Source of the DNA: Thermoanaerobaculia bacterium
Lineage (GTDB): Bacteria > Acidobacteriota > Thermoanaerobaculia > Multivoradales > UBA5704
Direction: 5' to 3'
Assembly (NCBI GenBank): GCA_044226625.1
Contig: JBGAGQ010000001.1
Span: 128,001-192,000 of the forward strand
DNA: 64,000 nt
Both the position numbers and the translations under genes were made by a program. This document shows positions 3,504 through 41,500 of this stretch, in pieces. The notes under the pieces were generated by a model that was not told the origin of the DNA, searched no databases, and saw only the letters and a program-made list of their open reading frames with translations. How positions within the stretch are numbered: position 1 is the first letter of the stretch; the number at the start of each line of letters is the position of its first letter.

Positions 3504-5288
<1,785 letters not shown>

Positions 5289-26922: not shown

Positions 26923-26948
26923 GTAACCGGAATCCCCCCTCCGGCATA
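26923..26948 (+). promoter_or_regulatory. ECF-type promoter motif, copy 1
   Basis: GTAAC-N13-CCGGCATA, about 100 nt upstream of the YHS gene; recurs at 31009 and 38365. Confidence 0.65.
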
Positions 26949-27049
26949 ACCCACCCCGAGCACGGCTTCCGCGGCCCTTCGCCGCATCCATCGAAAAGCA
27001 CGACGGCGGTTTCGATTTCGGGCGCGTTCGCGCCCCTGAGGAGACTTGT

Positions 27050-27946
27050 GTGAAAAACCTGGCTCGGCTCGCCCTACGGGTTACGGCCCTGACCCTCTTA
27101 CTCGCTCCGCTCGGCGTACGCGCCGAGGAGAAGGATCTCTTCGGCGACGCGCTGGCGACCACCCGCGTGGTGGTCAACAAGACCAAGGACGGTGTGGCCC
27201 TTCAAGGCTATGACGCGGTCGCCTACCTTACCGACAACAAACCGGTGGAGGGCTCGCCCAAGCTCCGTTCACGCTACAAGGGGGCGATCTACCAGTTCGC
27301 CACGTCCGAGCACAAGATGATGTTCGACGCCGATCCGGCCAGATACGAGCCGCAGTTCGGCGGCTATTGCGGCTACGCCGCATCGATCAACCGGCTGTCG
27401 CCGATCGATCCCAAGATCTTCCAGGTGCTCGACGGCCGCCTCGTGCTCCAGCACAACCAGAAGGCGTGGAACCTGTGGAACGAAGACGTTCCGGGAAACC
27501 TCGCGAAAGCCGACGCCAACTGGCCTGGCCTGGTCGATCGCAACGGCACCGGCGGCAAGGTTCTGGTCAACGTCGACAAAGACGGCGTCGCCCTCGAAGG
27601 GCACGATCCGGTTGCCTATTTCACGGTCGGCAAGCCGGTGAAGGGCGATCCCACGATCGACGCGGTCTACAACGGCGCGCGCTATTTCTTCTCGTCCAAG
27701 GAGAACCGCGAGACCTTCGAGCGCGCCCCCGCTCACTACGCACCGCAGTTCGGCGGCTTCTGCGGGTACGCGGCGTCGATCCACAAGGTCTCACCGGTCG
27801 ACGTGAACATCTTTCAGATCATCAACGATCGCCTGGTGCTGCAACACACGCCCAAGGCCTACAACCTGTTCAACGAAGACCCGCAGACGAACCTCAAGAA
27901 GGCCGATGCGAATTGGCCGGACCTGACCGAAAAAAACGGTCACTGA
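27050..27946 (+). CDS. Secreted tandem YHS-domain protein (YHS (seleno)protein family, Cys form)
   Basis: Two repeats of ALxGxDxVAY...G...Y.F...F...P..Y.PQFGG(Y/F)CGYAA...KADANWP; signal peptide. Confidence 0.85.
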   Translation: MKNLARLALRVTALTLLLAPLGVRAEEKDLFGDALATTRVVVNKTKDGVALQGYDAVAYLTDNKPVEGSPKLRSRYKGAIYQFATSEHKMMFDADPARYEPQFGGYCGYAASINRLSPIDPKIFQVLDGRLVLQHNQKAWNLWNEDVPGNLAKADANWPGLVDRNGTGGKVLVNVDKDGVALEGHDPVAYFTVGKPVKGDPTIDAVYNGARYFFSSKENRETFERAPAHYAPQFGGFCGYAASIHKVSPVDVNIFQIINDRLVLQHTPKAYNLFNEDPQTNLKKADANWPDLTEKNGH

Positions 27947-28044
27947 AACACCGGCCCTGACCATTCGAAAGGGAGCGGAGGCACGCTCCGCCCCTACCTC
28001 TTTAGCCATCCGCTTTTCTGAACACCATTCGAGGAGAAGATCCC

Positions 28045-28545
28045 ATGAAGAGAACGCCCCTTCGGCGCCTGGCCCTCGCGCTCGTCGCCTTTGCCCTTCC
28101 CGCGCTCGCCCAGGCCCAGAGCCCGACCTCGGACGAGAAGAACCTGACCCTCGAAGGCGCCAAGCAGGTGCTCGCCGCCGCGATCGTCGTCGCGAAGAAC
28201 GACGACTCGAAGACCGGCGCGATCGCCGTAGTCGATCGGAGCGGCAATCTGATCGCGCTCGAACGGCTCGACGGCACGTTCCCCGCCGCTGGCCAAGTCG
28301 CGACCGGCAAGGCACGCACCGCCGCTCTGTTTCAAAAAGCCACTCGGAATTTCGAGGACAGCATTAACAAGGGGCGCACCGCTCTCGTCGCGGTCGACGG
28401 CATGACCCCCTTGAAGGGTGGCGTGCCGATCGTGATCGACGGCAAGATCGTAGGCGCCGTCGGGGTGAGCGGGGCCGCGAGCCAGGACCGCGACGACGAG
28501 ATCGCCACGGCGGGAGCCGGGGCGTTCGCCGCCGCGGGGCACTGA
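28045..28545 (+). CDS. GlcG/HbpS family heme-binding protein, exported
   Basis: IAVVD.SG.L...RLDG, ATGKARTA, GGVPI...GAVGVSG...D; signal peptide. Confidence 0.9.
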   Translation: MKRTPLRRLALALVAFALPALAQAQSPTSDEKNLTLEGAKQVLAAAIVVAKNDDSKTGAIAVVDRSGNLIALERLDGTFPAAGQVATGKARTAALFQKATRNFEDSINKGRTALVAVDGMTPLKGGVPIVIDGKIVGAVGVSGAASQDRDDEIATAGAGAFAAAGH

Positions 28546-28556
28546 GGATCGGGACG

Positions 28557-30179
28557 ATGACGAAGAAGAGCCTCTTCCTCCTCGCTCTCGCCGCGCCTCT
28601 GCTCGGAGATTGGAGCGGCGCGGCTTCGGCACAGACGACCGGCGACGTGCCGATCGGCCGGCCGGACGCGGTGATCGACCTTGCCACGAAAGAGGGCGCG
28701 GCGGTCGTCGCCGCGACCTGGCGCTACGCCGACGCTCAGATCGTCGAGGTCGATCATCGCGCCCCGGGGCCGGATCTCAAAGCCTCCGGCGCGCCGGTGA
28801 AGACGCACGACCTCGTGCCGCACGCCGGAGACGCCGACTTCTCCGACGCCGCGTGGCCGGCGATCGAACCCGAGACACTCAAAGCGCGACGGGGCAACGG
28901 CCGCACCAGCTTCGGCTGGTATCGCCTGACGCTTACGCTTCCCGAAGCGTTCGGCGCGCTGCCGGCCGCCGGAACGGCGGTCGTGTTCGAGACCGTCGTC
29001 GACGACTACGCCGAGGTCTGGGTGGACAGCCGGCTGCCGCTCGTGCTCGGGCAGCAGGGGGGCGCGCTGATCCACGGCTTCAACGCGCCGAATCGGGTGG
29101 TCCTCACCCGCGACGCCAAGCCCGGTCAAACGTTCCACGTCGCGGTCTTCGCCGCGAACGGCCCGCTCTCGTCGGCGCCAGGCAATTTCATCTGGATGCG
29201 CTCGGCGACGCTCGACGTCTACCGTCCGGGCCGGCTCGGCCACGGCCAGGAGGTCGCGACCGAGATCGCCCGTCGGGATCCAAGGCTCGACGCGATCGTC
29301 GCTCCTGGCACGATGATCGAGCGGCTCGCTTCGGGCTTCTCATTCACCGAAGGTCCGGTCTGGGTAAAGGACGGCGGCTACCTGCTCTTCTCCGATCCCA
29401 ACGAGAACACCATCTACCGCTATTCGACCGACGGTCAGATTTCGATCTACCGGTCGCACAGCGGCTACACCGGTCTCGACGTTGGGATCTATCACCAGCC
29501 CGGCTCGAACGGCTTGACGCTGGACCGGGAAGGGCGCCTGACGATCGACGAGCATGGCAACCGGCGCGTGACGAGGCTCGAGAAGAACGGCACCCTCACC
29601 GTCCTCGCCGACCGATACGAAGGCAAACGGCTGAACAGCCCGAACGACCTCGTCTACCGCTCGGACGGCGCGCTCTACTTCACCGATCCGCCGTTCGGCC
29701 TGCCGAAGGTCTACGACGATCCGGGCAAGGAGCTCCCGACGAGCGGCGTCTTCCTCCTCCGCGACAGAAAGCTTGCGCGCGTCGCCGACGACCTCAAAGG
29801 ACCGAACGGGCTCGCGTTTTCGCCCGACGAGAAATTCCTTTACGTCTCGAACTGGGACGAGAAGAAGAAGATCGTCCAGCGCTATCCGGTCGCCGCCGAC
29901 GGCACGCTGGGCGTCGGCACGACCTTCGCCGATCTGACGAGCGTGCCCGGCGAGGAGGCACTCGACGGCTTGAAGGTGGACCGGGACGGCAACGTCTACG
30001 TCTCCGGCCCCGGCGGGCTCTCGATCTACGCCGCCGACGGCACGGCGCTCGGAACCCTCAAGGGCCCCGAGCTTCCCGCGAATTTCGCCTGGGGCGACGA
30101 CGACGGCAAAGCGCTCTACCTCACCGCTCGAACCGGGCTCTACCGGATTCGCTTGAAGGTCGAGGGGATTCGGCCGTAG
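28557..30179 (+). CDS. SMP-30/gluconolactonase family protein with an N-terminal beta-sandwich domain
   Basis: FTEGPVW, LLFSD, GSNGL, LNSPNDL, YFTDPP, PNGLAFSPD, DGLKVD; N-terminal WYR...VDDYAEVWV. Confidence 0.9.
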   Translation: MTKKSLFLLALAAPLLGDWSGAASAQTTGDVPIGRPDAVIDLATKEGAAVVAATWRYADAQIVEVDHRAPGPDLKASGAPVKTHDLVPHAGDADFSDAAWPAIEPETLKARRGNGRTSFGWYRLTLTLPEAFGALPAAGTAVVFETVVDDYAEVWVDSRLPLVLGQQGGALIHGFNAPNRVVLTRDAKPGQTFHVAVFAANGPLSSAPGNFIWMRSATLDVYRPGRLGHGQEVATEIARRDPRLDAIVAPGTMIERLASGFSFTEGPVWVKDGGYLLFSDPNENTIYRYSTDGQISIYRSHSGYTGLDVGIYHQPGSNGLTLDREGRLTIDEHGNRRVTRLEKNGTLTVLADRYEGKRLNSPNDLVYRSDGALYFTDPPFGLPKVYDDPGKELPTSGVFLLRDRKLARVADDLKGPNGLAFSPDEKFLYVSNWDEKKKIVQRYPVAADGTLGVGTTFADLTSVPGEEALDGLKVDRDGNVYVSGPGGLSIYAADGTALGTLKGPELPANFAWGDDDGKALYLTARTGLYRIRLKVEGIRP

Positions 30180-30187
30180 CTGCCCAC

Positions 30188-30217
30188 GGAAGCCGCCGTT
30201 CTAGGACGGCGGCTTCC
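30188..30217. repeat. REP-like palindrome or terminator
   Basis: GGAAGCCGCCGT-TCTAGG-ACGGCGGCTTCC, perfect 12 bp stem immediately after the lactonase stop. Confidence 0.6.
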
Positions 30218-30308
30218 TCTGTCTCTGAGGCCCCAGCTCGGCGAAGTCCAAAGGCTTGGGTCTATACTTGGCTCGGAATCGGCCGGTGCCGATTCGGAGA
30301 CCTCGAAG

Positions 30309-30545
30309 ATGCCCAACCCTGCGAACGTGACTTTCCAACAGGCCCTCGAAATCGTCGAAGGGTTGCCGGAAGACCAACAGGGAGAGCTGATCGAGATCGT
30401 CCGCAACCGGCAGAGAGAGCTACGCCGGGAGGCTCTGGCGGCTGGCGTCGAGGGCGCCCGCGCCGAGCTCGCCCGCGGCGACGTTCGGCGAGGTTCGGTC
30501 GGAGACCTTCTCCTTGAGCTGGCCGAAACCGAGAACGACGAGTGA
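30309..30545 (+). CDS. Putative type II antitoxin
   Basis: 78 aa acidic helical protein; GTGA overlap with the toxin gene. Confidence 0.75.
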   Translation: MPNPANVTFQQALEIVEGLPEDQQGELIEIVRNRQRELRREALAAGVEGARAELARGDVRRGSVGDLLLELAETENDE

Positions 30546-30826
30546 GGGAGCTCGTCTGGAGCAACACCTTTCGCCGCGCACTGCGGCGGACGCTCAAGCG
30601 ACAACCTCAAGCCCTCGTGGACATCACGGAAGCCCTGCGCCTGTTGCAGGAAAATCTTTTCGCTCCCCAGTTGGCCACTCACAAACTCAAGGGAAAGTTG
30701 GCCGGAATTTGGGCGTGCAGCGCCGGGTACGATCTACGCATTCTGTTTGAGTTGGTCGCGAACCCTGATCGCGCCGAAGAAGACCTGTTCCTGCTGGAGA
30801 TCGGCACCCACGACGAAGTGTACTGA
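30542..30826 (+). CDS. RelE/YafQ-family mRNA interferase toxin
   Basis: FRRALRR...L.THKLKG.L.G.WACS.GYDLRILF...IGTHDEVY. Confidence 0.88.
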   Translation: MRELVWSNTFRRALRRTLKRQPQALVDITEALRLLQENLFAPQLATHKLKGKLAGIWACSAGYDLRILFELVANPDRAEEDLFLLEIGTHDEVY

Positions 30827-30881
30827 GGCGGCATTCTAAGTTTGGTGCCCTTCGGCGCATCTCCGCTGCAAACTTCCAGAA

Positions 30882-31002
30882 GGCTTCTGGATAAGTCCTT
30901 CATCGCGGGATTCTCTGCGGGCGTCCCGCTTACTCGCTTCCCTCGGAAACCTCGGGGGCGTCCTCGGGGACACTGAGACGTGGGGAGAGTTTCTCAGCAG
31001 CC
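30882..31002. mobile_element. Degenerate second copy of the MITE-like element
   Basis: GGCTTCTGGATAAGTCC...GATTCTCTGCGGGCG...ACTCGCT...CTCGGGGGCGTCCTC...GAGTTTCTCAGCAGCC, colinear with 21276..21400. Confidence 0.65.
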
Positions 31003-31008
31003 TGCCCA

Positions 31009-31034
31009 GTAACGATTTCCTCCCGACCGGCATA
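31009..31034 (+). promoter_or_regulatory. ECF-type promoter motif, copy 2
   Basis: GTAAC-N13-CCGGCATA upstream of glucose dehydrogenase. Confidence 0.65.
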
Positions 31035-31098
31035 CATCGGGGCAATCGGGCATCGCCTGGTTCCCTTTGGCCGCACCCTACGAGGAGATTTGAATCCC

Positions 31099-32199
31099 AT
31101 GAAAGCCATCGCCGTCATCCCCGGCGCCGCCGGTAGCATCCATCTGCGCGACGTTCCGACGCCGCGCGTCGAGGACGTCCCCGACGGTCGGGGCGTTTTG
31201 GTCAAGGTCCTGCGCGTCGGCGTCGACGGCACAGACAAGGAAATCAACGCGGCCGAGTACGGCGCTCCGCCGCCGGGGGACGACTTTCTGATCCTCGGCC
31301 ACGAGAGCTTCGGCCAGGTGGTCGCGGTCGGACCGGCGGTCCATGAATTCAAGCCGGGCGACTTCGTGGTGGCGACCGTGCGCCGTCCCGGTTCGAGCCT
31401 CTACGACAAGATCGGCCTTCAGGACATGACGACCGACGACGTCTATTTCGAGCGCGGCATCAACCTGCGCCACGGCTACCTCGCCGAGTACTACGCCGAC
31501 GCGGCCGACTATCTGATCCGCATCCCGGCGGGCCTCAAAGAGGTGGGCGTGCTCATGGAGCCGTCGAGCGTCGCCCAGAAGGCGATCGGCCAGGCTTGGG
31601 AGATCCAGCGCCGGATGAAGGTCTGGCGTCCGCGGCGCGCCGCGGTCCTCGGCACCGGCACGCTCGGCCTGCTCGCCGCGCTCTCTCTGCGCCTGCGCGG
31701 TCTCGAAGTGGTCGCGTTCGGCCGCACGCCGCGCCCCTACCTGAACGCCGATCTCCTCGAAGCGATCGGCGCCGCCTACCTTTCGACCGCGGACGTGAGC
31801 CTGACCGAGGCGTCGAAGACCCACGGACCGTTCGACTTCATCCTCGAAGGGACCGGTTTCTCGCCGCTCGTCTTCGAGGCGATGGGGGCGCTCGCCAAGA
31901 ACGGCGTGCTCGCGATGGTTTCCATCAGCGGCGGCGACCGCCACGTCGAGATCCCCTCGGACCAGATCAATCAGGGGTTCGTGCTCGGCAACAAAGTCGC
32001 GTTCGGCAGCGTCAACGCAAGCCGCGAGGACTTCGAGCGCGGCGCCGAGGACCTCGCGTCGGCCGAGCTCTCGTGGCCCGGTTGGCTCGGCAAGCTGCTC
32101 ACCCACCCGATCGAAGGGCTCGAGAACTACGCGCAGATGATCGAAACCCTGACTCACGGTCAAGGGGCGATCAAAGTCTTCGTGAACGTCGCGAGCTGA
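31099..32199 (+). CDS. Zn-dependent (MDR) glucose 1-dehydrogenase, archaeal type
   Basis: GVDGTDKEI, LGHES, VATVRRP, ERGI, EPSSV..K, GTGTLG, GSVNA, IKV. Confidence 0.88.
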   Translation: MKAIAVIPGAAGSIHLRDVPTPRVEDVPDGRGVLVKVLRVGVDGTDKEINAAEYGAPPPGDDFLILGHESFGQVVAVGPAVHEFKPGDFVVATVRRPGSSLYDKIGLQDMTTDDVYFERGINLRHGYLAEYYADAADYLIRIPAGLKEVGVLMEPSSVAQKAIGQAWEIQRRMKVWRPRRAAVLGTGTLGLLAALSLRLRGLEVVAFGRTPRPYLNADLLEAIGAAYLSTADVSLTEASKTHGPFDFILEGTGFSPLVFEAMGALAKNGVLAMVSISGGDRHVEIPSDQINQGFVLGNKVAFGSVNASREDFERGAEDLASAELSWPGWLGKLLTHPIEGLENYAQMIETLTHGQGAIKVFVNVAS

Positions 32200-32211
32200 G
32201 GCGAACCTCCC

Positions 32212-34887
32212 ATGATCCTCGACAAGAACGCGGAACGCCTTCGGATCGCCGAGGCCGACCGGGGCGAGAAGCCCTGGCGCCTGTGGGGTCCCTATCTCTC
32301 CGAGCGCCAGTGGGGCACCGTGCGCGAGGACTACAGCCCCCACGGCAGTGCGTGGGACTTCTTTCCGCACGACCACGCGAGAAGTCGCGCCTATCGCTGG
32401 GGCGAGGACGGCCTCGCCGGGATCTCGGACGAGAACCAACTGCTCTGCTTCTCGCTCGCGCTCTGGAACGGCCGCGACCCGATCTTGAAGGAGCGCCTTT
32501 TCGGTCTCGCCGGCCCGGAGGGGAACCACGGCGAGGACGTCAAGGAGGTCTACTACTACCTCGACGCGACGCCCACCTCGTCGTACGTCGAGATGCTCTA
32601 CAAGTATCCGCAGGCCGAGTATCCGTACGCCTGGCTGGTCGAAGAGAACCGGCGTCGCGGCAAGCTCGATCCCGAGTTCGAGCTGATCGACACGGGGGTG
32701 TTCGCCGAGGATCGCTATTTCGACGTGACCGTGCGGTCGGCCAAGGCCGACGCCGAGGACCTGCTGATCGAGATCGAGGTCGCGAACCGGGGTTCCGAGG
32801 CGGCGCGAATCACCGTGCTGCCGCAGCTCACGTTCCGCAACGTCTGGAGCTGGGGGCGTTCGAACGATCCGAAGCCGGAATTCACGGGCGTGGCGGGCGG
32901 CGCGCGGGTGCGCGCGTTCCATCCCGGGATCGGCACGATGTACGCGGCCTTCGAGAGATTCGCGGGCAAGGAGCCCGAGCTGCTCTTCTGCGAAAACGAG
33001 ACGAACGTGCCGAAGCTGTTCGGCGCGCCCGCCCAGGGTCCGTTCAAGGACGGCATCCACGAAGCGGTGATCCACGGCAACCGCGACGCGGTCCACGCCG
33101 AGCCCATGGGGACGAAGATGGTGGCACGCTTCGACGCCGAGATTCCCGACGGTTCCTCGCGGACGTTTCGCCTGCGCCTCGCCAGGACCCTTCCGGCCGA
33201 TCCGTTCGCCGGTTTCGCTGCCACGTTCGCCGCGCGCCGAGCCGAGGCCGACGCGTTCTACGACGCCATACCGAGCGCGGCGAGCGATGCCGCCGCGCGC
33301 CGGGTGCAACGGCAGGCCTACGCGGGGCTGCTCTGGAGCAAACAGCTCTACCTGTTCGACATCCCGGAATGGCTCGCGGGCGACCCGGGGCAGCCCGCGC
33401 CGCCGCCCGAGCGGAAGCATGGCCGCAACAGCGAGTGGACGCATCTCAATAACTCGCGCGTGATGTCGATGCCGGACGCCTGGGAATACCCCTGGTACGC
33501 CGCCTGGGACCTCGCGTTCCACTGCGTGCCGCTTGCCGAGATCGATCCGGAGTGGGCCAAGGAGCAGCTCGTGCTGCTCACCCGCGAGTGGTACATGCAT
33601 CCGAACGGTCAGCTCCCCGCCTACGAGTGGGCGTTCGGCGACGTGAACCCTCCCGTCCATGCGTGGGCAGCGCTCAAGGTCTACGAGATTGACCGGCAGG
33701 CGAACGGCCGGGCCGACCGCGCGTTCCTCGAACGGGTGTTCCACAAATTGATGCTCAATTTCACCTGGTGGGTGAACCGCAAGGACGCCGAGGGGCGCAA
33801 CGTCTTCCAGGGCGGCTTCCTCGGCCTCGACAACATCGGCGTGTTCGACCGCAGCTCGGAGCTGCCGACGGGCGGGCACATCGACCAGGCGGACGGCACC
33901 GGCTGGATGGCGATGTACAGCTTGAACCTGATGCGGATCGCCCTGGAGCTCGCGCTCGAAAATCCGGTCTACGAGGACATCGCGACCAAGTTCTTCGAGC
34001 ACTTCCTCTACATCGCCGCCGCGCTTGCGAACCTGGGCGGCCAGGGGGACGAGGCGATCGACTTCTGGGACGAAGAGGACCAATTCTTCTACGACGTCCT
34101 GCATCTTCCCGAAGGGGGCCCTGACGGCCGCCACGAGCGGCTGCGGGTCCGATCGATGGTCGGTCTGATCCCGATGTACGCGGTCGAGGTGATCGAGGCG
34201 GAGCTGCTCGAAAAGCTGCCGGGCTTCGCCGCCCGGCTCAAATGGTTCCTGAGCTATCGGCCGGATCTCGCGCAGCTCGTCTCGCGCTTCCACGAGCCGG
34301 GCAATGGCGACCGCCGGTTGCTGTCGTTGCTGCGCCGCCACCGGTTGAACAACGTGCTCAAGAAGGTGCTCGACGAGACCGAATTCCTGTCGCCGCACGG
34401 CGTGCGCGCGCTGTCGCGCCATCACGCGGAGCATCCGTACGTCCTCGACGTCAACGGCCAGCGCTTCTCGGTCAACTATCAGCCGGGCGAATCGGAGTCG
34501 GGTCTGTTCGGCGGCAACTCGAACTGGCGCGGTCCCGTCTGGTTCCCGGTCAACTACCTTCTCATCGAGTCGTTGCGCCGTTTCGACCGCTATTACGGCG
34601 ACGACTTCTCGATCGAATGCCCGACCGGCTCGGGGAACCGGATGAACCTCGGCCAGGTGGCGGACGAGCTCTCGCGCCGACTCGGCAGCTTGTTCCTGGA
34701 AGACGGCGACGGGCGGAAGCCGGTGTTCGGCGGCGACGAAAAGATGCAACGCGACCCGCACTTCAAGGACCACCTGCTGTTCTACGAGTACTTCCACGGC
34801 GACAGCGGACGCGGCGTGGGCGCTTCGCACCAGACCGGATGGACGGCGCTGGTGGCCGACTTGTTCCGCCGCAAGAGCGAGCCATGA
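32212..34887 (+). CDS. GH63 / MGH1-like glucosidase
   Basis: [65 protein letters not shown]. Confidence 0.92.
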
Positions 34888-36917
34888 GGTTCGAAGGGAG
34901 CGTCTGCACCGACTTTGATCGCTCCTCCACTCTCGAATGGCTGGAGGCGAACGGCCTCGGTGGCTGGGCGAGCTCGACGGTCTCGGGCGCCCACACCCGT
35001 CGCTACCATGGCCTGTTGGTCGCGGCGACCGAGCCGCCGGTCGGGCGCAAGGTCCTGCTGTCGCGGCTGGACGAGACGATTGAGGTCGAAGGCGCACGCT
35101 TCGACCTCGGCGCGAACCGCTTCCCGGGAGCGATCCATCCGCGCGGCTTCGAGCGAATCGTTCGCTATCGCCAAGAGCCGTTCCCGACCTGGGAGTACGA
35201 GGCCGGCGCCGCGCGTCTGACCAAGACGATCGCCGCGGTCCGCCTGCCGACCGACGAGAACGCGACGGTCGTCCTCTACGAGGTGCCAGAATCGAGCGCG
35301 CCGTTTCGCCTTCTCCTCCGGCCGTTCTTCGCCAGCCGCGATTTTCACGCGCTCGGGCACGCCAACGACTTCGTTCTTCGCGAGGGGAGCTTCGCCGACG
35401 GGACGCTCCGCTACCAAAGCTACGACGGCCTGCCCGAAGTTTTCGTCCACGTCCCGGGCAGCTCGTTCGCTCCCAGCCCCGACTGGTGGCATCGCTTCGA
35501 ATACGCCCAGGAACGGGAGCGCGGGCTCGATTTCGAGGAGGATCTCTTCACCCCCGGAGCGTTCGATATCTCGGTCTCTCCGGGCCGGAAGCTCGCCGTC
35601 CTGATCTCGACCGCTCCGCCCGAAGGACGCGACGCCGGAAAGCTGGTCGATGTTGAGCATCGCCGACGCAAAAAGGTGCTCGCGCCGTTCGCGGCGGCCG
35701 AGCCGTTCGTCCGTTCGCTCGCTCTCGCCGCCGACGCCTTCGTTGTCCGCCGTGGCCAACCGGGATTGGGGCTCTCAACCGTCATCGCCGGCTACCCCTG
35801 GTTTTCCGATTGGGGGCGCGATTCGATGATCGCCCTCCCGGGCCTTTGCCTCACGACCGGCCGCTTCGCCGAGGCGAAAGGCATCCTGCGCGCCTTCGCG
35901 GCCGCCGTGAGCGAAGGGATGTTGCCGAACCGATTTCCGGACCGCGCCGACGAGGCGCCCGAGTACAACACGGTCGACGCCACGCTCTGGTTCTTCGTCG
36001 CGGTCTGGGACTATCTGGAAGCCACCGGCGACACCGCGTTCGTACGCGACGAGCAGCTGCCGGTCTTCGAGGAGATCCTCGCCTGGCACGATCGCGGCAC
36101 GCGCCATGGCATCCGGGTCGTTCAGGACGGCCCGCTCGAGGGCTTGCTCCACGCGGGCGAGCCGGGAGTCCAGCTCACCTGGATGGACGCGAAGGTGGGC
36201 GATTGGGTGGTGACGCCGCGCACCGGTTTTCCGGTAGAGATCCAGGCGCTCTGGGCGAACGCGCTCGCGATCACCGCCGAGCTCGCCGACCGCTTCGGCG
36301 AAACGGCGAAAGGCGACGCGCTGAGACGCCGCGCCGAGAGCGTCCGGTCACGCTTCGCCGAAACGTTCTGGAATGAGGAGCTCGGCGGGCTCTACGACGT
36401 GGTAGGCGACGAAGGGAGCGACGCGAGCGTGCGGCCGAATCAGATCTTTGCCCTCTCGCTCCCGTTCCCGCTCCTCTCCGGCCCGCGCGCGGAACGGCTG
36501 CTCGCGCTCGTCGAAGCGAAGCTCCTCACGCCGCGCGGCCTGCGCACGCTGTCGCCCGACGACCCGCGCTATCGGCCGATCTACGTCGGCGGTCCGCTCG
36601 AACGGGACGGCGCCTACCACCAGGGGACCGTCTGGTCCTGGCTGCTCGGTCCATACGTCACCGCGCTCGTCCGCGTCCGCGGAGAGGAAGGGAGGCGGCA
36701 AGGGCGAGAGATTCTCGACCGCTTCGCGCCGCACCTGCTCGAGGCCGGGCTCGGCACGGTCTCCGAGATCTTCGATGCCGAGCCTCCGCACGCACCGCGC
36801 GGCTGCCCGGCGCAGGCCTGGAGCGTCGCCGAGCTACTGCGCGCCGCGGTCGAGATCGCCCCGGAGAGTCCTAGCAAAGGAGATTCGGAAACCGGCGGCG
36901 AAGGAAGCGTGCCGTGA
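34884..36917 (+). CDS. Amylo-alpha-1,6-glucosidase (glycogen debranching enzyme)
   Basis: ATGA overlap at 34884; [59 protein letters not shown]. Confidence 0.92.
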
Positions 36918-37720
36918 ACCGGATCGCCCGCAGTCTGCGCGAGCATTGGCCCGAGGTGCTGATCGAGGGCTTCCTTCTCGGCGCTTTCATGATCTCCGCG
37001 GGAGGTTTCGCGACTCTCCTCTACTCGCCCCATTCGCCGCTCGCGCACCGGCTTCCCGACGGGCTCCTCCGCGACGCGCTGATGGGGCTCGCGATGGGGG
37101 CCACCGCGATCGCGCTCATCTACTCCCCGTGGGGACAGCGCTCCGGCGCGCACTTCAACCCGTCGGTGACGCTCACCTTCCTTCGCCTGGGCAAAATCGA
37201 CCCGGCGGACGCGATGCTCTACGTCGTCGGCCAATCGCTCGGCGGCATTCTCGGCGTGATCGCGATCGGCGCCCTGCTCGGCTCGCCGTTCACCGATCCG
37301 CCGGTGCGCTCGGTCGCGACACTACCGGGTCCCGCCGGGCCGAGCGTCGCCTTCGCCGCCGAGGTCGCGATCTCCGCGCTGCTCATGACCGTCGTGCTCT
37401 GGGTCTCGAACAGCCGCTTCGCCCGCGCCACCGGGGTGCTCTGCGGCGCGCTCGTCGCCGTCTTCATCACGTTCGAGGCACCCCTATCAGGGATGAGCAT
37501 GAACCCGGCGCGGAGCCTCGCCTCCGCCGTCCCCTCGGGCATCTGGGACGGCTTCTGGATCTATCTCATCGCCCCGCCGCTCGGCATGCTCCTCGCCGCC
37601 GAAACCTACCGAGCCGTACGCGGCATCGAGCGCGTCTATTGCGCAAAGTTCCACCATCCCGACGACCACCGCTGCATTTTCCGCTGCCGCTACTGCGAAT
37701 CCCCGGGAGCGAACGTCTAG
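36914..37720 (+). CDS. MIP family channel (aquaporin-like) with a Cys/His-rich tail
   Basis: SGAHFNPSVT and GMSMNPARS loops; six TM helices; tail CAKFHHPDDHRCIFRCRYC. Confidence 0.92.
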   Translation: MNRIARSLREHWPEVLIEGFLLGAFMISAGGFATLLYSPHSPLAHRLPDGLLRDALMGLAMGATAIALIYSPWGQRSGAHFNPSVTLTFLRLGKIDPADAMLYVVGQSLGGILGVIAIGALLGSPFTDPPVRSVATLPGPAGPSVAFAAEVAISALLMTVVLWVSNSRFARATGVLCGALVAVFITFEAPLSGMSMNPARSLASAVPSGIWDGFWIYLIAPPLGMLLAAETYRAVRGIERVYCAKFHHPDDHRCIFRCRYCESPGANV

Positions 37721-37744
37721 TCTCGCTCCGGCCGGTTGCGCAGC

Positions 37745-38286
37745 CTTCGAACCCCTCCCCCTCTGGCGGCCTTTCAGGCCGCGGTATTGGGTTGCCTTCC
37801 TACCCAGGGCATCGGCCTTCGGCCTCAGCCCTGGGCTGGAATCTTCCGGCCCGTTGGGCCGGGCGCACAGGACCACGGTCCAGATGGATCCGTCGTGGAA
37901 CCCCTTTCCCTGCACGGGCGGCCAGCGCGCCGTGCGAACCTGCCCGGCCCTCGGTCCATCGGCCTCGAACCGGGGCGGCCCGTGGATCGCGGTTCCCCAC
38001 AGGGGCCTATTGGTCCATCGGTCTTGACCGGGGCGGCCCGTGGATCGCGCGCCGGCCAGCGCGCCGTGCGAAACCTGCCCAGCCCTCGTTCCATCGGCAT
38101 CCAACCGGGGCGGCCCGTGGATCGCGGTTCCCCACAGGGGCCTATTGGTCCATCGGTCTCGACCGGGGCGGCCCAACGGGCCGCAAGAACCTAGCCCAGG
38201 GCTGAGGCCGAAGGCCGATGCCCTGGGTAGCGAGCCCCCCATCTAAAGCGGCCTGAAAGGCCGCCAGAGTAGGGAGGAGTTCGAAG
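37745..38286. repeat. Nested REP/BIME-like palindromic element with an internal tandem repeat
   Basis: Perfect inverted pairs 37761-37782/38248-38269 (22 bp), 37800-37837/38193-38230 (38 bp) and 37847-37861/38169-38183; interior 134 bp-period duplication starting at 37920 and 38054. Confidence 0.85.
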
Positions 38287-38364
38287 CGGAACCCGGTTCC
38301 CCACGCGCGCCTCTCGGTCCATCGGTAGCGAGAACCGCTCCCCCCCCAGAGCGGAATGAAACGA

Positions 38365-38389
38365 GTAACCCATTCCGATTCCCGGCATA
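38365..38389 (+). promoter_or_regulatory. ECF-type promoter motif, copy 3
   Basis: GTAAC-N12-CCGGCATA, then SD GGAGG before ATG 38416. Confidence 0.65.
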
Positions 38390-38415
38390 CCTTACGGGCG
38401 GGAGGAAACAGAGCT

Positions 38416-39993
38416 ATGGAGCATTACGACGTCGTCATCATCGGATCGGGTGCCGGAGGGGGCACTCTGGCTTGGTCGCTCGCGAAGACCGGCAAGAAGA
38501 TCCTGATCCTCGAGCGGGGCGACTACGTGCCGCGCGAAAAAGAGAACTGGAGCACGCGGGCGGTCAACGTCGAGGGGCGTTACAACACGAAGGAAACCTG
38601 GAAGGACTGCAACGGTGAGCCGCTCCACCCGCATACGAACTACTTCGTCGGCGGCAATACGAAGTTCTACGGCGCGGCCCTCTTCCGCCTGCGGCGCGAG
38701 GACTTCGGGGAGCTGCGCCATCACGGCGGGATCTCCCCGGCTTGGCCGGTCGGCTACGACGAGATGGAGCCCTGGTATACGAAGGCCGAACACCTTTATC
38801 AGGTGCATGGCGAGCGCGGCGTCGACCCGACCGAGCCCGACTCATCGGCCCCTTACCTTTATCCCGCGATCCGCCACGAGCCGCGGATCCAGCAGCTCCA
38901 CGACGATTGGGTGAAGATGGGGCATCGCCCGTTCCACGTGCCGCTCGGCGTGCGCCTCGACGAAAAGAATCCTCGCACCTCGCCGTGCATCCGCTGCGAG
39001 ACCTGCGACGGCCACCCTTGCCTGATTGGCGCGAAGTCCGACGCGCAGACGATCTGCGTCGACCCGGCGCTCGCGCATGAGAACGTCACCCTGCTCACCC
39101 GCGCCTACGTCTCCCGCTTGGAGACCGACCCCTCCGGCCGCTCGATCTCCGCCGTCCACGTCGAACGCGAGGCGCCCGACGGCACGATCCGCGAGAGCTT
39201 CTCGGGCGACCTCGTCGTCGTCTCGGCCGGCGCGATCAACTCGGCGGCGCTCCTGCTCCGCTCGGCTTCGGACCGCCATCCGAACGGCCTCGCGAACGGC
39301 TCCGACGTCGTCGGCCGCCATTACATGGGGCACGTCAACTCGGTCCTGATGGCGATCTCCAAATGCCCGAACCCGACGGTGTTCCAAAAGACGCTTGCGT
39401 TGAACGACTTCTACTTCGGCTCGCCGGAGTGGCAGTACCCGATGGGGCACATCTCGTTCGTCGGCAAGCTCGACGCGGTGACGCTATCGGCGGGCGCACC
39501 GCCGTTCGCTCCCGGCTGGACGCTCGACCTCATGGCGCGCCACTCGCTCGACTTCTGGCTCACCTCGGAAGACCTGCCCGACCCGAACAACCGGGTGACG
39601 CTCGACCCGCGGGGCAACATCGTCCTGAGCTACAAGCCGAACAACGAGGAAGGACACAAGCGCCTCACGGCCAAGCTCAAAGAGCTGATGAAGGGCCAGA
39701 CGAAATGCGGCGTCCATGGGCACGAGTGCCACGAAGGGATCTTCTCCCGCAGCCTCTACGCCGGGCAGCGGATTCCCCTCGCCGGTGTCGCGCACCAGAA
39801 TGGCACGATCCGCTTCGGGACCGATCCGAAGACCTCGGCGCTCGACCGCGATTGCAGAGCTCACGAGGTCGAAAACCTTTACGTCGCCGACGGCAGCTTT
39901 TTCCCGTCGAGCGCGGCGGTCAATCCCGCGCTCACCATCATGGCGAACGCCCTGCGCGTGGGTGCGCATCTCGCCGAGCGCCTCGGCGCGTGA
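38416..39993 (+). CDS. GMC family FAD oxidoreductase
   Basis: IIGSGAGGG, LERG, VGGNTKFYG, CIRCETCDG, AGAINSA.LL..S, AHQNGT, NLYVADGS, NPALTIMANA. Confidence 0.93.
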   Translation: MEHYDVVIIGSGAGGGTLAWSLAKTGKKILILERGDYVPREKENWSTRAVNVEGRYNTKETWKDCNGEPLHPHTNYFVGGNTKFYGAALFRLRREDFGELRHHGGISPAWPVGYDEMEPWYTKAEHLYQVHGERGVDPTEPDSSAPYLYPAIRHEPRIQQLHDDWVKMGHRPFHVPLGVRLDEKNPRTSPCIRCETCDGHPCLIGAKSDAQTICVDPALAHENVTLLTRAYVSRLETDPSGRSISAVHVEREAPDGTIRESFSGDLVVVSAGAINSAALLLRSASDRHPNGLANGSDVVGRHYMGHVNSVLMAISKCPNPTVFQKTLALNDFYFGSPEWQYPMGHISFVGKLDAVTLSAGAPPFAPGWTLDLMARHSLDFWLTSEDLPDPNNRVTLDPRGNIVLSYKPNNEEGHKRLTAKLKELMKGQTKCGVHGHECHEGIFSRSLYAGQRIPLAGVAHQNGTIRFGTDPKTSALDRDCRAHEVENLYVADGSFFPSSAAVNPALTIMANALRVGAHLAERLGA

Positions 39994-40004
39994 GGAATCG
40001 AATC

Positions 40005-41057
40005 ATGAAAACTTTTTCTCCCCATCGGCTTTCGAACGCGGTCCGGTTCGCACTCGCCGCCTTTGTTCTCCTCCTTCTTCCGCTCGCGGCCTCGGCCGCG
40101 GCCCCGCCGAGGGTCGGCGCGGTCGGCTTCACCGTCTCCGACCTCGACGCAGAAGTGGCGTTCTTCACCGACACCCTCGGGTTCGAGAAGGTTTCCGAGC
40201 GCGAGGTGATGGGCGACGTCTATGAGAATCTCTTCGGGGTATTCGGTCTCCGCGCGCGGGTGGCCCGGCTTCGGCTCGGCACCGAGGTGGTCGAGCTGAC
40301 CGAGGTCCTCACCCCGCGCGGCCGGGCGATCCCGATCGACGCCAAGAGCAACGACCGATGGTTCCAGCACATCGCGCTCGTCGTCTCCGACATGGACGCG
40401 GCGTACGCGAAGCTGCGGGCGGCCAAGGTCCGGCACGTCTCGACCGCGCCGCAACGGCTGCCCGACTGGAACCCGAACGCCGGAGGAATCCGCGCGTTCT
40501 ACTTCCAGGATCCCGACGGCCACAACCTGGAGGTGATCTGGTATCCGCCCGGCAAGGGGAATCCGCGCTGGCAGGATCGCAGCGCGGAGGATCGGGGCAA
40601 GCTCTTCCTTGGCATCGACCACACGGCGATCGTGGTCTCCGACACCGACGCGAGCCTTGCGTTCTATCGCGACCGGCTCGGGCTTTCGGTCGCCGGCGCG
40701 AGCGACAACTATGGCACCGAGCAGGAGCACCTGAACCAAGTGTTCGGCGCCCACCTGCGAATCACCGCGCTCCGGGGCTCCGGCGGTCCGGGAATCGAAT
40801 TCCTCGAATACCTCACGCCGCGCGGCGGCCGGCCGACGCCGCCCGACCTCGCGGTGAACGACCTCGCGCATTGGCAGACCACCCTGGTACTCCCCGAGCC
40901 CAAAGCGCTGGACGGGCTCGCGGCGCGCTTCGCCGAGGCGCGGGTCCCGTTCGTTTCCCTCGGAATCGTCGGGCTCCCCGAGGCTGAGCTCGGCTTCCAT
41001 CGGGGATTCCAGGTCCTCGACCCGGACGGCCACGCCTTCGCGGTCGTCGAACCGTAA
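40005..41057 (+). CDS. Exported two-domain VOC/glyoxalase family protein
   Basis: Signal peptide; FQHIALVVSD, YFQDPDGHNLE, GIDHTAIVV, IEFLEY, DPDGH. Confidence 0.88.
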   Translation: MKTFSPHRLSNAVRFALAAFVLLLLPLAASAAAPPRVGAVGFTVSDLDAEVAFFTDTLGFEKVSEREVMGDVYENLFGVFGLRARVARLRLGTEVVELTEVLTPRGRAIPIDAKSNDRWFQHIALVVSDMDAAYAKLRAAKVRHVSTAPQRLPDWNPNAGGIRAFYFQDPDGHNLEVIWYPPGKGNPRWQDRSAEDRGKLFLGIDHTAIVVSDTDASLAFYRDRLGLSVAGASDNYGTEQEHLNQVFGAHLRITALRGSGGPGIEFLEYLTPRGGRPTPPDLAVNDLAHWQTTLVLPEPKALDGLAARFAEARVPFVSLGIVGLPEAELGFHRGFQVLDPDGHAFAVVEP

Positions 41058-41095
41058 ACCCATTCCCTAGATACGAACCACGAAAGAGAACCGCG

Positions 41096-41500
41096 ATGAG
41101 CACTCTTACGAAAACCCAGAACCGGATCAGCTGGCTGCTGCAGATCGTCGTGGCCGCGATCCTCGTCCAAACCCTCTATTTCAAATTCACCGGCGCGCCC
41201 GAGTCGGTCTACATCTTCTCGACCCTCGGCCTCGAACCGGTTGGCCGGATCGGCTCCGGCATCGCCGAGCTGATCGCGGCGTTGCTCCTGCTCATCCCGG
41301 GCACCGCGGTCTACGGCGGGCTGATCACCATGGGCGTACTCGCCGGGGCGATCGTCTCCCACCTGACCAAGCTCGGTATCGAAGTTCAAGGAGACGGCGG
41401 ACTGCTGTTCGGCCTCGCTCTCGTCTGCTTCGTGGGCGGCGCGATCGTCGTCTGGCTCCACCGGCGGGAGCTGCCGATCGTCGGGGCGCGATTTCGCTAA
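41096..41500 (+). CDS. DoxX family membrane protein
   Basis: QTLYFKFTG.PES..IF..LG.EP.GRIG.G..E; GAI.SHL; four TM helices. Confidence 0.85.
   Translation: MSTLTKTQNRISWLLQIVVAAILVQTLYFKFTGAPESVYIFSTLGLEPVGRIGSGIAELIAALLLLIPGTAVYGGLITMGVLAGAIVSHLTKLGIEVQGDGGLLFGLALVCFVGGAIVVWLHRRELPIVGARFR

Follow-up and report, generated by a model that had tools for sequence, protein, structure and literature searches.

A 64,000-nucleotide stretch of the genome of a Thermoanaerobaculia bacterium (GenBank accession number JBGAGQ010000001.1; coordinates 128001 to 192000; assembly GCA_044226625.1), called the window here, was found to carry three copies of one bipartite motif, P1, P2 and P3, each ahead of one unit of a ten-gene cluster that includes glycoside hydrolase and sugar dehydrogenase genes. 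The three copies are quite probably promoters read by a SigF/NrsF-type (ECF16-like) extracytoplasmic function (ECF) sigma factor, which is encoded outside the window on contig C11 of the same genome (G000). Judged from the sequence, this is a known regulatory design, SigF/NrsF, in an altered form that would drive a conserved module not previously described.

The motif ahead of the three units

The pattern GTAAC-N{12,13}-CCGGCATA occurs exactly three times in the window, always on the forward strand (Table 1), and in none of 100 dinucleotide-preserving shuffles of the window. The whole assembly (6,602,936 bases, 67.7% G+C) has no match other than this trio, which lies within 11.5 kb. The original prediction had placed a GTAAC-type motif before each of three units (YHS to lactonase, glucose dehydrogenase to aquaporin, and GMC to DoxX), and these counts confirm it. 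At P1, P2 and P3 alike, a GGAG-type ribosome site (Shine-Dalgarno) lies between the motif and the start codon.

Two other origins of the motif were considered and set aside. No Rfam family reached its gathering score between window positions 26000 and 42000, and a reading of the motif region as an RNA element was dropped. A chance repeat or the remnant of a mobile element was rejected because the flanks of the sites cannot be aligned with one another while the boxes are conserved at orthologous gene junctions in related genomes.

A candidate sigma factor and its anti-sigma factor

A relaxed pattern, GTAAC-N14-16-GGCATA, identified two further sites genome-wide. One of them (C11:35335-35360) is located 11 nt 5' of the earliest start codon that an ECF sigma gene could use, and this gene is followed by one for an NrsF-family anti-sigma factor (Table 1). 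The other precedes a gene for a Cys-rich secreted protein that has no family match. At the five strongest sites the -35 box is GTAACC, except at P2 where it is GTAACG, and the distance from the -35 box to CATA is 16 nt, except at P3 where it is 15 nt.

The NrsF protein encoded on C11 has six hydrophobic segments in a Kyte-Doolittle scan and only two Cys residues, 139 and 189, which are 50 residues apart. Both were kept in five of the five homologues with an alignment that spans both positions, and also in a sixth, a partial match from contig C2 that starts at the first Cys. NrsF is a rare family in this genome, with two loci against 43 matches to Sigma70_r2. The C11 sigma factor is assigned to ECF16 from its neighbouring NrsF gene and from the promoter, not from the sigma sequence. 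The search for a motif copy upstream of an ECF gene, as the original prediction had suggested, was positive, and the presence of the motif before the ECF sigma/NrsF operon supports the earlier view that it is an ECF-type promoter of the GTAAC class (SigF, ECF16) and that the three units belong to one regulon.

Conservation within the genus

Seven congeners (G001-G007) were compared; they are kin, so counts of co-occurrence among them are not independent. Orthologues of the C11-type NrsF with 67-70% identity are present in four of the seven (G001, G003, G004 and G006), and none was found in G002 (98% complete), G005 (85%) or G007 (89%). All four congeners with the operon have also kept its promoter, in which TGTAACCGCCGC and GCGGCATAGGAGG are retained and the 8-nt core of the spacer and the upstream flank have diverged.

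The ten genes are syntenic in G001, G003 and G004, where the orthologues of the glucose dehydrogenase (GDH) are 90-91% identical to that in the window. G006 has a deleted remnant of this gene, and elsewhere in the family there are only distant paralogues with at most ~46% identity over short segments. Across G001, G003 and G004, the boxes of P1 to P3 are kept in nine of nine positions and the spacers have diverged. Sites of the form GTAAC-N13/14-CGGCATA number 5, 4, 5 and 7 in G001, G003, G004 and G006, and 0 in G002, whereas the reversed-pattern control gave 0, 0, 0, 1 and 0 in these genomes. G002 thus has neither the sigma factor nor the cluster nor the motif. In five genomes, all 20 sites compared have the -10 block CGGCATA, or CGGCAAA or CGGCACA at the weaker sites.

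Any conserved upstream motif could be the binding site of a conventional repressor or activator rather than a promoter, and an operator of this kind is extremely unlikely here. The motif is bipartite and non-palindromic, with a spacer fixed in length (12-13 nt) and free in sequence over the nine orthologous sites, and therefore fits a pair of -35 and -10 boxes. It agrees with the published -35 box and spacing of ECF16 and precedes the ECF sigma operon in five of the five genomes that have this operon. A scan upstream of each unit found no sigma-70-like promoter, which also speaks against an operator; terminator-like sites were fewer than in shuffles.

Some irregularities were seen in the congener clusters. 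For the gene of the GlcG/HbpS-like protein, G001 and G004 gave only partial tblastn matches (residues 19-92 and 97-153, respectively; L032 ~4850-5074 and L033 ~4406-4576), which may reflect decay or frameshifts. The cluster of G006 is rearranged (C50:1-18000, L034): its GDH consists of fused N- and C-terminal remnants, and the MIP, GMC and VOC genes are missing, so that the DoxX gene comes after the gene for the glycogen debranching enzyme (GDE). A second copy of P2, with a 5' end of the dehydrogenase gene, lies 10 kb off, after a remnant of the lactonase gene.

Insertions at the junctions and the age of the promoters

P2 and P3 had been described in the original prediction as restarting transcription after inserted elements. 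Each does lie just 3' of an insertion in G000, P2 after a toxin-antitoxin pair and a dispersed repeat, and P3 after a block of a palindromic repeat family (Table 1). The toxin-antitoxin pair is absent from the junction between the lactonase gene and P2 in G001 and G004, and the palindromic family, with members on 12 contigs, is absent from the junction between the MIP gene and P3 in three of three congeners. In G001, which has no insertion, the stop codon TAA of the lactonase gene sits inside the -35 hexamer of P2. An unrelated insert of ~620 nt occupies this junction in G003, and 36 nt are found there in G004. In G001, G003 and G004, the MIP gene extends into P3 with its last codons. As congeners without the insertions keep both promoters at the same gene junctions, P1 to P3 are ancestral, with P2 and P3 as internal promoters, and the toxin-antitoxin pair and the repeat element are insertions specific to G000. 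The location claimed for P2 and P3 is therefore correct, but the insertions are not the cause of the promoters.

The junction between the lactonase gene and P2 (window 30180-31008; L031, L032, L033) is a hot spot for insertion. The repeats at the two junctions belong to different families, one with a palindromic unit of ~100 nt that often forms tandem arrays on 12 contigs, and one with a unit of ~130 nt on 10 other contigs.

The predicted wider regulon

Outside the window, genes were called with a crude filter based on G+C content at third codon positions (GC3) that mis-set several starts, and the calls, including those at the C45 and P3 sites, were checked by eye. The relaxed consensus GTAAC-N13/14-CGGCA[ACT]A gave ten sites in G000, compared with two for a reversed-sequence control. 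Nine of the ten are upstream of a correctly oriented gene and one is in a coding sequence, and the motif is thus not as frequent inside coding sequences as upstream of genes, a comparison that had been proposed together with the original prediction.

The genes behind these sites in G000 are included in Table 1. The site ahead of the esterase gene was found in G000, G001, G003 and G004, and that ahead of a DedA/VTT gene in G001, G003, G004 and G006, with GAAACC...CGGCAAA at the same place in G000. The kinase gene has the site in G000 and G006, and was assigned in G001 and G003 from the near-identical site sequence only; the msrA gene has it in G000, G004 and G006. Taken together, these sites predict that the regulon in the genus is composed of the three window units, the esterase locus, DedA/VTT, the Ser/Thr kinase and the periplasmic MsrA. 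As G004 and G006 each gave a single NrsF match, it is probable that a single sigma factor reads the CATA, CACA and CAAA variants alike and controls msrA, the classical ECF16 target.

Two further observations were made in G000. A one-mismatch form of the motif, GAAACC-N13-CGGCAAA (C9:74442-74467), lies ~105 nt 5' of a second gene with a YHS domain, the product of which is 39% identical to the YHS protein of Terriglobia. On C81, a small frame (L136:3560-3763, + strand) with a Cys-rich tail of repeated CxxxC is located just 5' of DinB_2, TANGO2 and VTT genes, and could encode a metal-binding or modified peptide.

Several findings weigh against the assignment of these sites to an ECF16-like sigma factor encoded on C11. 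The -10 box is CATA, CAAA or CACA, compared with CGAA or CG(t,a) in published ECF16 promoters, and the NCBIfam matches of the C11 sigma protein are generic ECF models, all below cut-off. The pattern GTAACC-N14/15-GCAMA gave 3, 5, 5, 2 and 1 matches in congeners against 5, 5, 8, 2 and 15 for the reversed control, and because these counts are no higher than the control, weak sites were called by conservation ahead of an orthologous downstream gene and not by counts. Finally, G000 has a second SigF/NrsF pair (contig C2:7682-8967, L010) with GTAACC-N15-GCAAAT upstream.

This last finding raises the question of whether P1 to P3 in G000 are read wholly or partly by the C2 paralogue, or by both sigma factors through cross-talk, which is distinctly unlikely. 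The C11 and C2 operons share the -35 box GTAACC and the spacing, their -10 boxes differ little (GCATA and GCAAAT), and cross-talk between the ECF16 paralogues EcfF and EcfS of Bradyrhizobium japonicum has been suggested (PMC3420878). However, CGGCATA is common to the C11 promoter and P1 to P3, whereas the C2 promoter has AGCAAATA. In addition, a search with the C11 query, sensitive enough to find the C2 copy of G000 at E 4e-15, gave a single NrsF match in each of the cluster-bearing congeners. The C11 sigma factor is therefore preferred as the one that reads P1 to P3. GCAAA-type sites in G000 (C113:68276 and C45:13725) precede the secreted MsrA gene and a pair of genes for cytochrome b561 and a molybdopterin oxidoreductase (MsrPQ-like), and G000 may assign the classical targets for methionine repair to one of two paralogous sigma factors and the sugar module to the other.

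By analogy with SigF/NrsF and EcfF/OsrA, the sigma factor would be held by a six-helix membrane anti-sigma factor with two conserved Cys residues. An oxidant or thiol-reactive agent, which in characterised systems is peroxide, reactive chlorine, chromate or cadmium, would inactivate the anti-sigma factor, and the released sigma factor would then start transcription at its own operon and at all promoters that read GTAACC-N13-CGGCA(T/A/C)A. Homology to these systems is what suggests induction of the regulon by oxidants or stress.

Gene products of the cluster

Features of the window and of the wider regulon are listed in Table 1. The gene content and enzyme families given in the original prediction agree with the matches in Pfam, NCBIfam and PDB.

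Table 1. Location of promoters, genes and inserted elements. Coordinates are those of the window unless a contig of G000 is named; for P1, P2 and P3, the distance is from the end of the motif to the start codon.
Feature	Location	Strand	Details
Promoter P1	26923..26948	+	GTAACC-N13-CGGCATA; 101 nt 5' of YHS gene; in gap divergent from CHAT-domain gene
Exported protein with two YHS domains	27050..27946	+	One Cys per repeat (GG[YF]CGYAAS), 2 Cys; Pfam YHS 56.8 bits; signal peptide
Exported HbpS/GlcG-like protein	28045..28545	+	PF03928 106.4 bits; signal peptide
Exported SMP-30/gluconolactonase-like (SGL) beta-propeller	28557..30179	+	PF08450 128.9 bits; signal peptide
Type II toxin-antitoxin pair	30309..30826	+	78-aa antitoxin (30309-30545) overlaps 94-aa YafQ/RelE-type toxin (30542-30826)
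Dispersed repeat copy, ~130 nt	30873..31007		Ends just before P2; blastn matches (75-86% identity) on 10 other contigs
Promoter P2	31009..31034	+	GTAACG-N13-CGGCATA; 64 nt 5' of GDH gene
Glucose 1-dehydrogenase (GDH), medium-chain archaeal-type	31099..32199	+	PF16912 165 bits; no signal peptide
GH63/MGH1-like glycoside hydrolase, 891 aa	32212..34887	+	PF22422 77.7 bits; PF03200 31.2 bits; no signal peptide
Glycogen debranching enzyme (GDE), archaeal-type, amylo-alpha-1,6-glucosidase	34884..36917	+	GDE_N+GDE_C; PF06202 392.5 bits; PF12439 234.6 bits
MIP-family channel, aquaporin-like	36914..37720	+	PF00230 101 bits
Palindromic repeat family block, 644 nt	37721..38364		Inverted arms 37761-37861 and 38169-38269; internal 135-nt direct repeats
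Promoter P3	38365..38389	+	GTAACC-N12-CGGCATA; 26 nt 5' of GMC gene
GMC flavoprotein dehydrogenase	38416..39993	+	Pfam match; four-Cys cluster CIRCETCDGHPC at residues 191-202; no signal peptide
Exported two-domain VOC (glyoxalase/dioxygenase-fold) protein	40005..41057	+	PF00903 87.3 bits, two stretches; signal peptide
DoxX-like (DoxX_2) membrane protein	41096..41500	+	PF13564 25.3 bits, just below 26.3-bit cut-off; four hydrophobic segments
ECF sigma gene	C11 ~35372-35950		192-aa frame; only Sigma70_r2 (53.2 bits) and Sigma70_r4_2 (41.2 bits)
NrsF-family (DUF1109) anti-sigma gene	C11 35947-36639		230 aa; PF06532 54.1 bits against 26.8-bit cut-off; start overlaps sigma stop
Esterase gene (PF00756), then same-strand Ferric_reduct+Rieske and GNAT (Acetyltransf_5) genes	C81		Motif upstream in G000
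Ser/Thr kinase gene	G000		Motif upstream
Secreted (periplasmic) MsrA gene	G000		Motif upstream
Cytochrome b561 + molybdopterin oxidoreductase gene pair	G000		Motif upstream
159-aa secreted protein, no family match	G000		Motif upstream

In the first unit, the YHS protein matches NCBIfam model NF041384, 'YHS domain-containing (seleno)protein', at 246.8 bits. The SGL protein has an N-terminal domain of ~230 aa with no family match, followed by a propeller related to PDB 3e5z ('putative gluconolactonase', E 6e-41) and also to 3dr2 ('exported gluconolactonase').

In the second unit, the GDH is related to PDB 2b5v ('glucose dehydrogenase', E 1.5e-56) and 2cd9 (E 2.5e-35), which we take to be enzymes of archaeal non-phosphorylative glucose oxidation. 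The start of the GDE gene overlaps the stop codon of the GH63 gene, and the GDE matches TIGR01561 at 446.4 bits, above its cut-off. The best PDB matches of the MIP protein are NIP2-1 and AQP4, not GlpF-type channels.

In the third unit, residues 4-519 of the GMC protein align with PDB 6a2u_B ('glucose dehydrogenase') at E 7.5e-31, and the protein also matches 7w2j ('fructose dehydrogenase large subunit') at E 1.3e-29; its four-Cys cluster presumably holds an iron-sulfur cluster. The VOC protein has only weak PDB matches. The DoxX_2 gene, the last of the cluster, is convergent with a QueG-like gene, and its congener orthologues are 85-87% identical. On the other side of the cluster, the gene divergent from P1 (window 24001-26706, - strand) encodes a protein of 901 aa that combines an astacin-like peptidase region with a CHAT domain; it showed no link to the regulon.

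Possible output of the regulon

Four of the ten proteins (YHS, GlcG-like, SGL and VOC) have a signal peptide and GDH, GH63, GDE and GMC have none, which disfavours a single linear pathway. Such a pathway had been put forward in the original prediction, with glucose released from glycogen or from glucosyl or mannosyl osmolytes, oxidised by the dehydrogenase or the GMC enzyme, and its lactone split by the SGL protein, all tied to a channel and exported proteins. The enzyme families are all as stated, and the best solved relatives of the SGL protein are named gluconolactonases, one of them as exported. In other genomes (described below), lactonase-fold and GlcG-like genes do occur within 10 kb of the GDH gene, in 20 and 15 of 78 non-congener loci, but this is much rarer than for GH63, GMC and VOC (43-47 of 78) and GDE (40 of 78). 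As the SGL protein, and neither GDH nor GMC, has a signal peptide, lactone and lactonase would be in different compartments. A search confined to the cluster found neither gluconate dehydratase nor 2-keto-3-deoxygluconate (KDG) aldolase among its ten genes (Pfam, NCBIfam), and there is no kinase for the route either. The linear route is thus doubtful: its enzyme families stand, but the order 'dehydrogenase or GMC, then lactonase' does not agree with the compartments or with the gene content.

It is possible, though we hold this view only tentatively, that the cluster works in two halves. A cytoplasmic half (the GH63-like enzyme, GDE, GDH and GMC) would free glucose from stored alpha-glucan or glucosyl solutes and oxidise it without ATP, yielding NAD(P)H and reduced flavin, and an exported or membrane half (the YHS, HbpS-like, lactonase-fold, VOC, DoxX and MIP proteins) would act on the envelope under the same stress. 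Some features weigh against this proposal too. Unlike the two sugar dehydrogenases, which are cytoplasmic, the lactonase is exported. The cluster encodes neither the small subunit nor the cytochrome subunit that solved relatives of the GMC enzyme have, and the GH63-like enzyme has only a marginal sequence match in PDB.

Another possibility is a peroxide system, in which the GMC protein acts as an oxidase that makes H2O2 from released sugar, the MIP channel passes it, and exported heme-type and Cys proteins handle it outside. The MIP, GMC and VOC genes are adjacent in most loci that have them, GMC enzymes include oxidases, and among solved structures the MIP protein is closest to NIP/AQP types and not to GlpF. 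However, the solved enzymes nearest to the GMC protein are dehydrogenases in which electrons go to an iron-sulfur cluster and not to O2, and the GMC protein has the Cys cluster. A peroxide system is highly unlikely.

The gene module beyond the genus

Relatives of the GDH were sought in one genome per species. At least 557 were found, and the best 80 loci, with 62-91% identity, come from Terriglobia, Blastocatellia, Pyrinomonadaceae, Vicinamibacterales, Gemmatimonadota, Methylomirabilota/NC10, Rokubacteria, Dadabacteria, Bacteroidota, Ignavibacteria and others. Leaving aside one congener-like locus, the GDE of which is 77% identical, and one duplicate, partner genes were counted in 78 loci if they were within 10 kb of the GDH gene, many of the contigs being short. 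GH63 was found in 47 of the 78, VOC in 45, GMC in 43, GDE in 40, MIP in 33, SGL in 20, GlcG in 15 and DoxX in 15. Among the 41 loci with a full 10 kb on both sides, at least three of five core partners are present in 27 and all five in 12. With the synteny in three congeners, this agrees with the earlier expectation that the cluster genes would be co-located in other genomes.

The promoter did not travel with the genes. GTAACC-N12-14-[CG]G[CG]CATA was found in one of the best 80 GDH loci, the congener-like one, indicating that the promoter is specific to the genus, and a quick look upstream of GDH in other phyla found GTAAC at ~4 of 22 loci, which is near chance and shows no enrichment. No NrsF gene was found in any of the best GDH loci scanned, and within the phylum, NrsF is present in 17 of 151 sampled genomes. 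ECF-like frames occur in 25 of 79 loci; they are directly upstream on the same strand in four NC10-type loci, and divergent from the MIP gene in five Acidoferrales-type loci. Four Acidoferrales-type loci (L115, L117, L124 and L133) have a conserved GGACGCAAC box 5' of the MIP gene, beside the divergent ECF sigma gene, and three NC10-type loci (L068, L086 and L110) have a TTGACA-N17-TAGTCT-like housekeeping promoter 5' of an operon of sigma gene, small open reading frame and glucose dehydrogenase gene.

Companions of the module were identified with Pfam on two model loci and with tblastn. In the Terriglobia model locus, the module is followed by genes for a 381-aa protein with no assigned family, TANGO2, VTT/DedA, a DinB_2-like protein, DoxX, YHS, GNAT and Ferric_reduct+Rieske, and these companions recur in 11-16 loci. 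In G000, homologues of the Ferric_reduct/Rieske, GNAT, VTT, TANGO2, DinB_2 and 381-aa proteins are encoded together on C81 beside the esterase site. The same gene set thus emerges twice, from the promoter-based prediction of the regulon and from the gene neighbourhood in another class, which is independent support for a single functional unit.

We infer that the ten genes are part of a module that is widely conserved and has undescribed biochemistry. A literature search at the level of titles and abstract openings turned up no description of a pathway or module with this gene set, in line with the original prediction, in which it was not recognised as a described pathway. A broader reading is that the MIP-GMC-VOC-GH63-GDH-GDE core and its companions (the YHS Cys/Sec, HbpS-like, lactonase-fold propeller, DoxX, DedA/VTT, TANGO2, DinB_2, GNAT and Ferric_reduct-Rieske proteins) form one undescribed stress pathway across many phyla. 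It would draw reducing power from stored glucan or glucosyl solutes without using ATP and pass this across the membrane for envelope repair or detoxification, and it would have been wired independently to different ECF sigma factors in each lineage, NrsF-linked in the genus and others beside the module in NC10-type and Acidoferrales-type loci. We regard this as speculative and unlikely to hold as a whole.

Comparison with known systems

To our knowledge, SigF/NrsF (ECF16) systems have been characterised in Proteobacteria only, where their small regulons are devoted to methionine sulfoxide repair or to metal-stress peptides. The system in G000 would, by analogy, be an acidobacterial SigF/NrsF switch with a changed -10 box, that is, an envelope oxidant sensor linked to carbohydrate reserves through glucan/glucoside hydrolases and two sugar dehydrogenases. 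Its promoter is so specific (three strict sites in 6.6 Mb and ~10 relaxed ones) that the regulon could be read from the sequence alone. The regulon leads to a set of about 10-18 genes, a module whose conservation reaches from Acidobacteriota to Gemmatimonadota, Methylomirabilota and Bacteroidota, and one sigma factor with one promoter offers a handle for working out the role of this module. The sigma/promoter pair may also serve as an orthogonal expression part.

The SigF/NrsF system of Caulobacter crescentus (PMC3511200) has a sigma-F site GTAACC-N16-CGAA and an NrsF that needs Cys131 and Cys181. The two systems share an ECF sigma gene that overlaps the gene for a six-helix DUF1109/NrsF anti-sigma factor, two conserved Cys residues 50 residues apart, a GTAACC -35 box 16 nt from the -10 core (15 at P3), a copy of the motif before their own operon, and a small dispersed regulon with a DoxX-family protein and periplasmic redox proteins. 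They differ in the -10 core, which here is CATA, CAAA or CACA and not CGAA, and in the host, an acidobacterium (Thermoanaerobaculia) and not a proteobacterium. In contrast to that of Caulobacter, the regulon here is composed mainly of glycoside hydrolases and sugar dehydrogenases and has no DUF692, DUF2063 or DUF2282 genes, and its DoxX protein belongs to the DoxX_2 family, with a score just below the Pfam cut-off.

For B. japonicum, the published work cited above (PMC3420878) gives a promoter GTAAC(g,a)-N14-15-(c,t)CG(t,a) for EcfF, an autoregulated operon, an anti-sigma factor, OsrA, that needs Cys129 and Cys179, and an EcfF start codon formerly annotated too far upstream. The start-codon misannotation has a parallel here, where the motif is just 11 nt from the first possible start of the sigma gene. 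SigF/NrsF of Azospira suillum responds to reactive chlorine species (PMC4436054). Both systems resemble the present one in having a GTAAC-type promoter before their own operon (here seen in sequence) and methionine sulfoxide reductases in the regulon, as indicated here by the msrA sites in three genomes and by the site before the cytochrome b561 and molybdopterin oxidoreductase pair in G000. However, the EcfF and Azospira SigF regulons centre on methionine sulfoxide repair (MsrA/B, YedYZ, MrpX), which is a minor part here, where three of the strongest sites lead to the sugar module.

Archaeal non-phosphorylative glucose oxidation resembles the cluster in its medium-chain glucose 1-dehydrogenase with a Glu_dehyd_C domain and a lactonase-fold protein nearby. 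In contrast to the archaeal route, the cluster has no gluconate dehydratase or KDG aldolase, its lactonase is exported, and the dehydrogenase is coupled to the GH63 and GDE hydrolases, a GMC enzyme and a channel. The GMC enzyme, for its part, aligns over nearly its full length with the catalytic subunits of FAD glucose and fructose dehydrogenase complexes (6a2u, 7w2j) and shares their four-Cys cluster. Unlike in those complexes, there is no adjacent small subunit with a Tat signal, no cytochrome c and no signal peptide; the adjoining genes encode the VOC and DoxX proteins, and the constant neighbours of the GMC gene are those for the exported VOC protein and the MIP channel.

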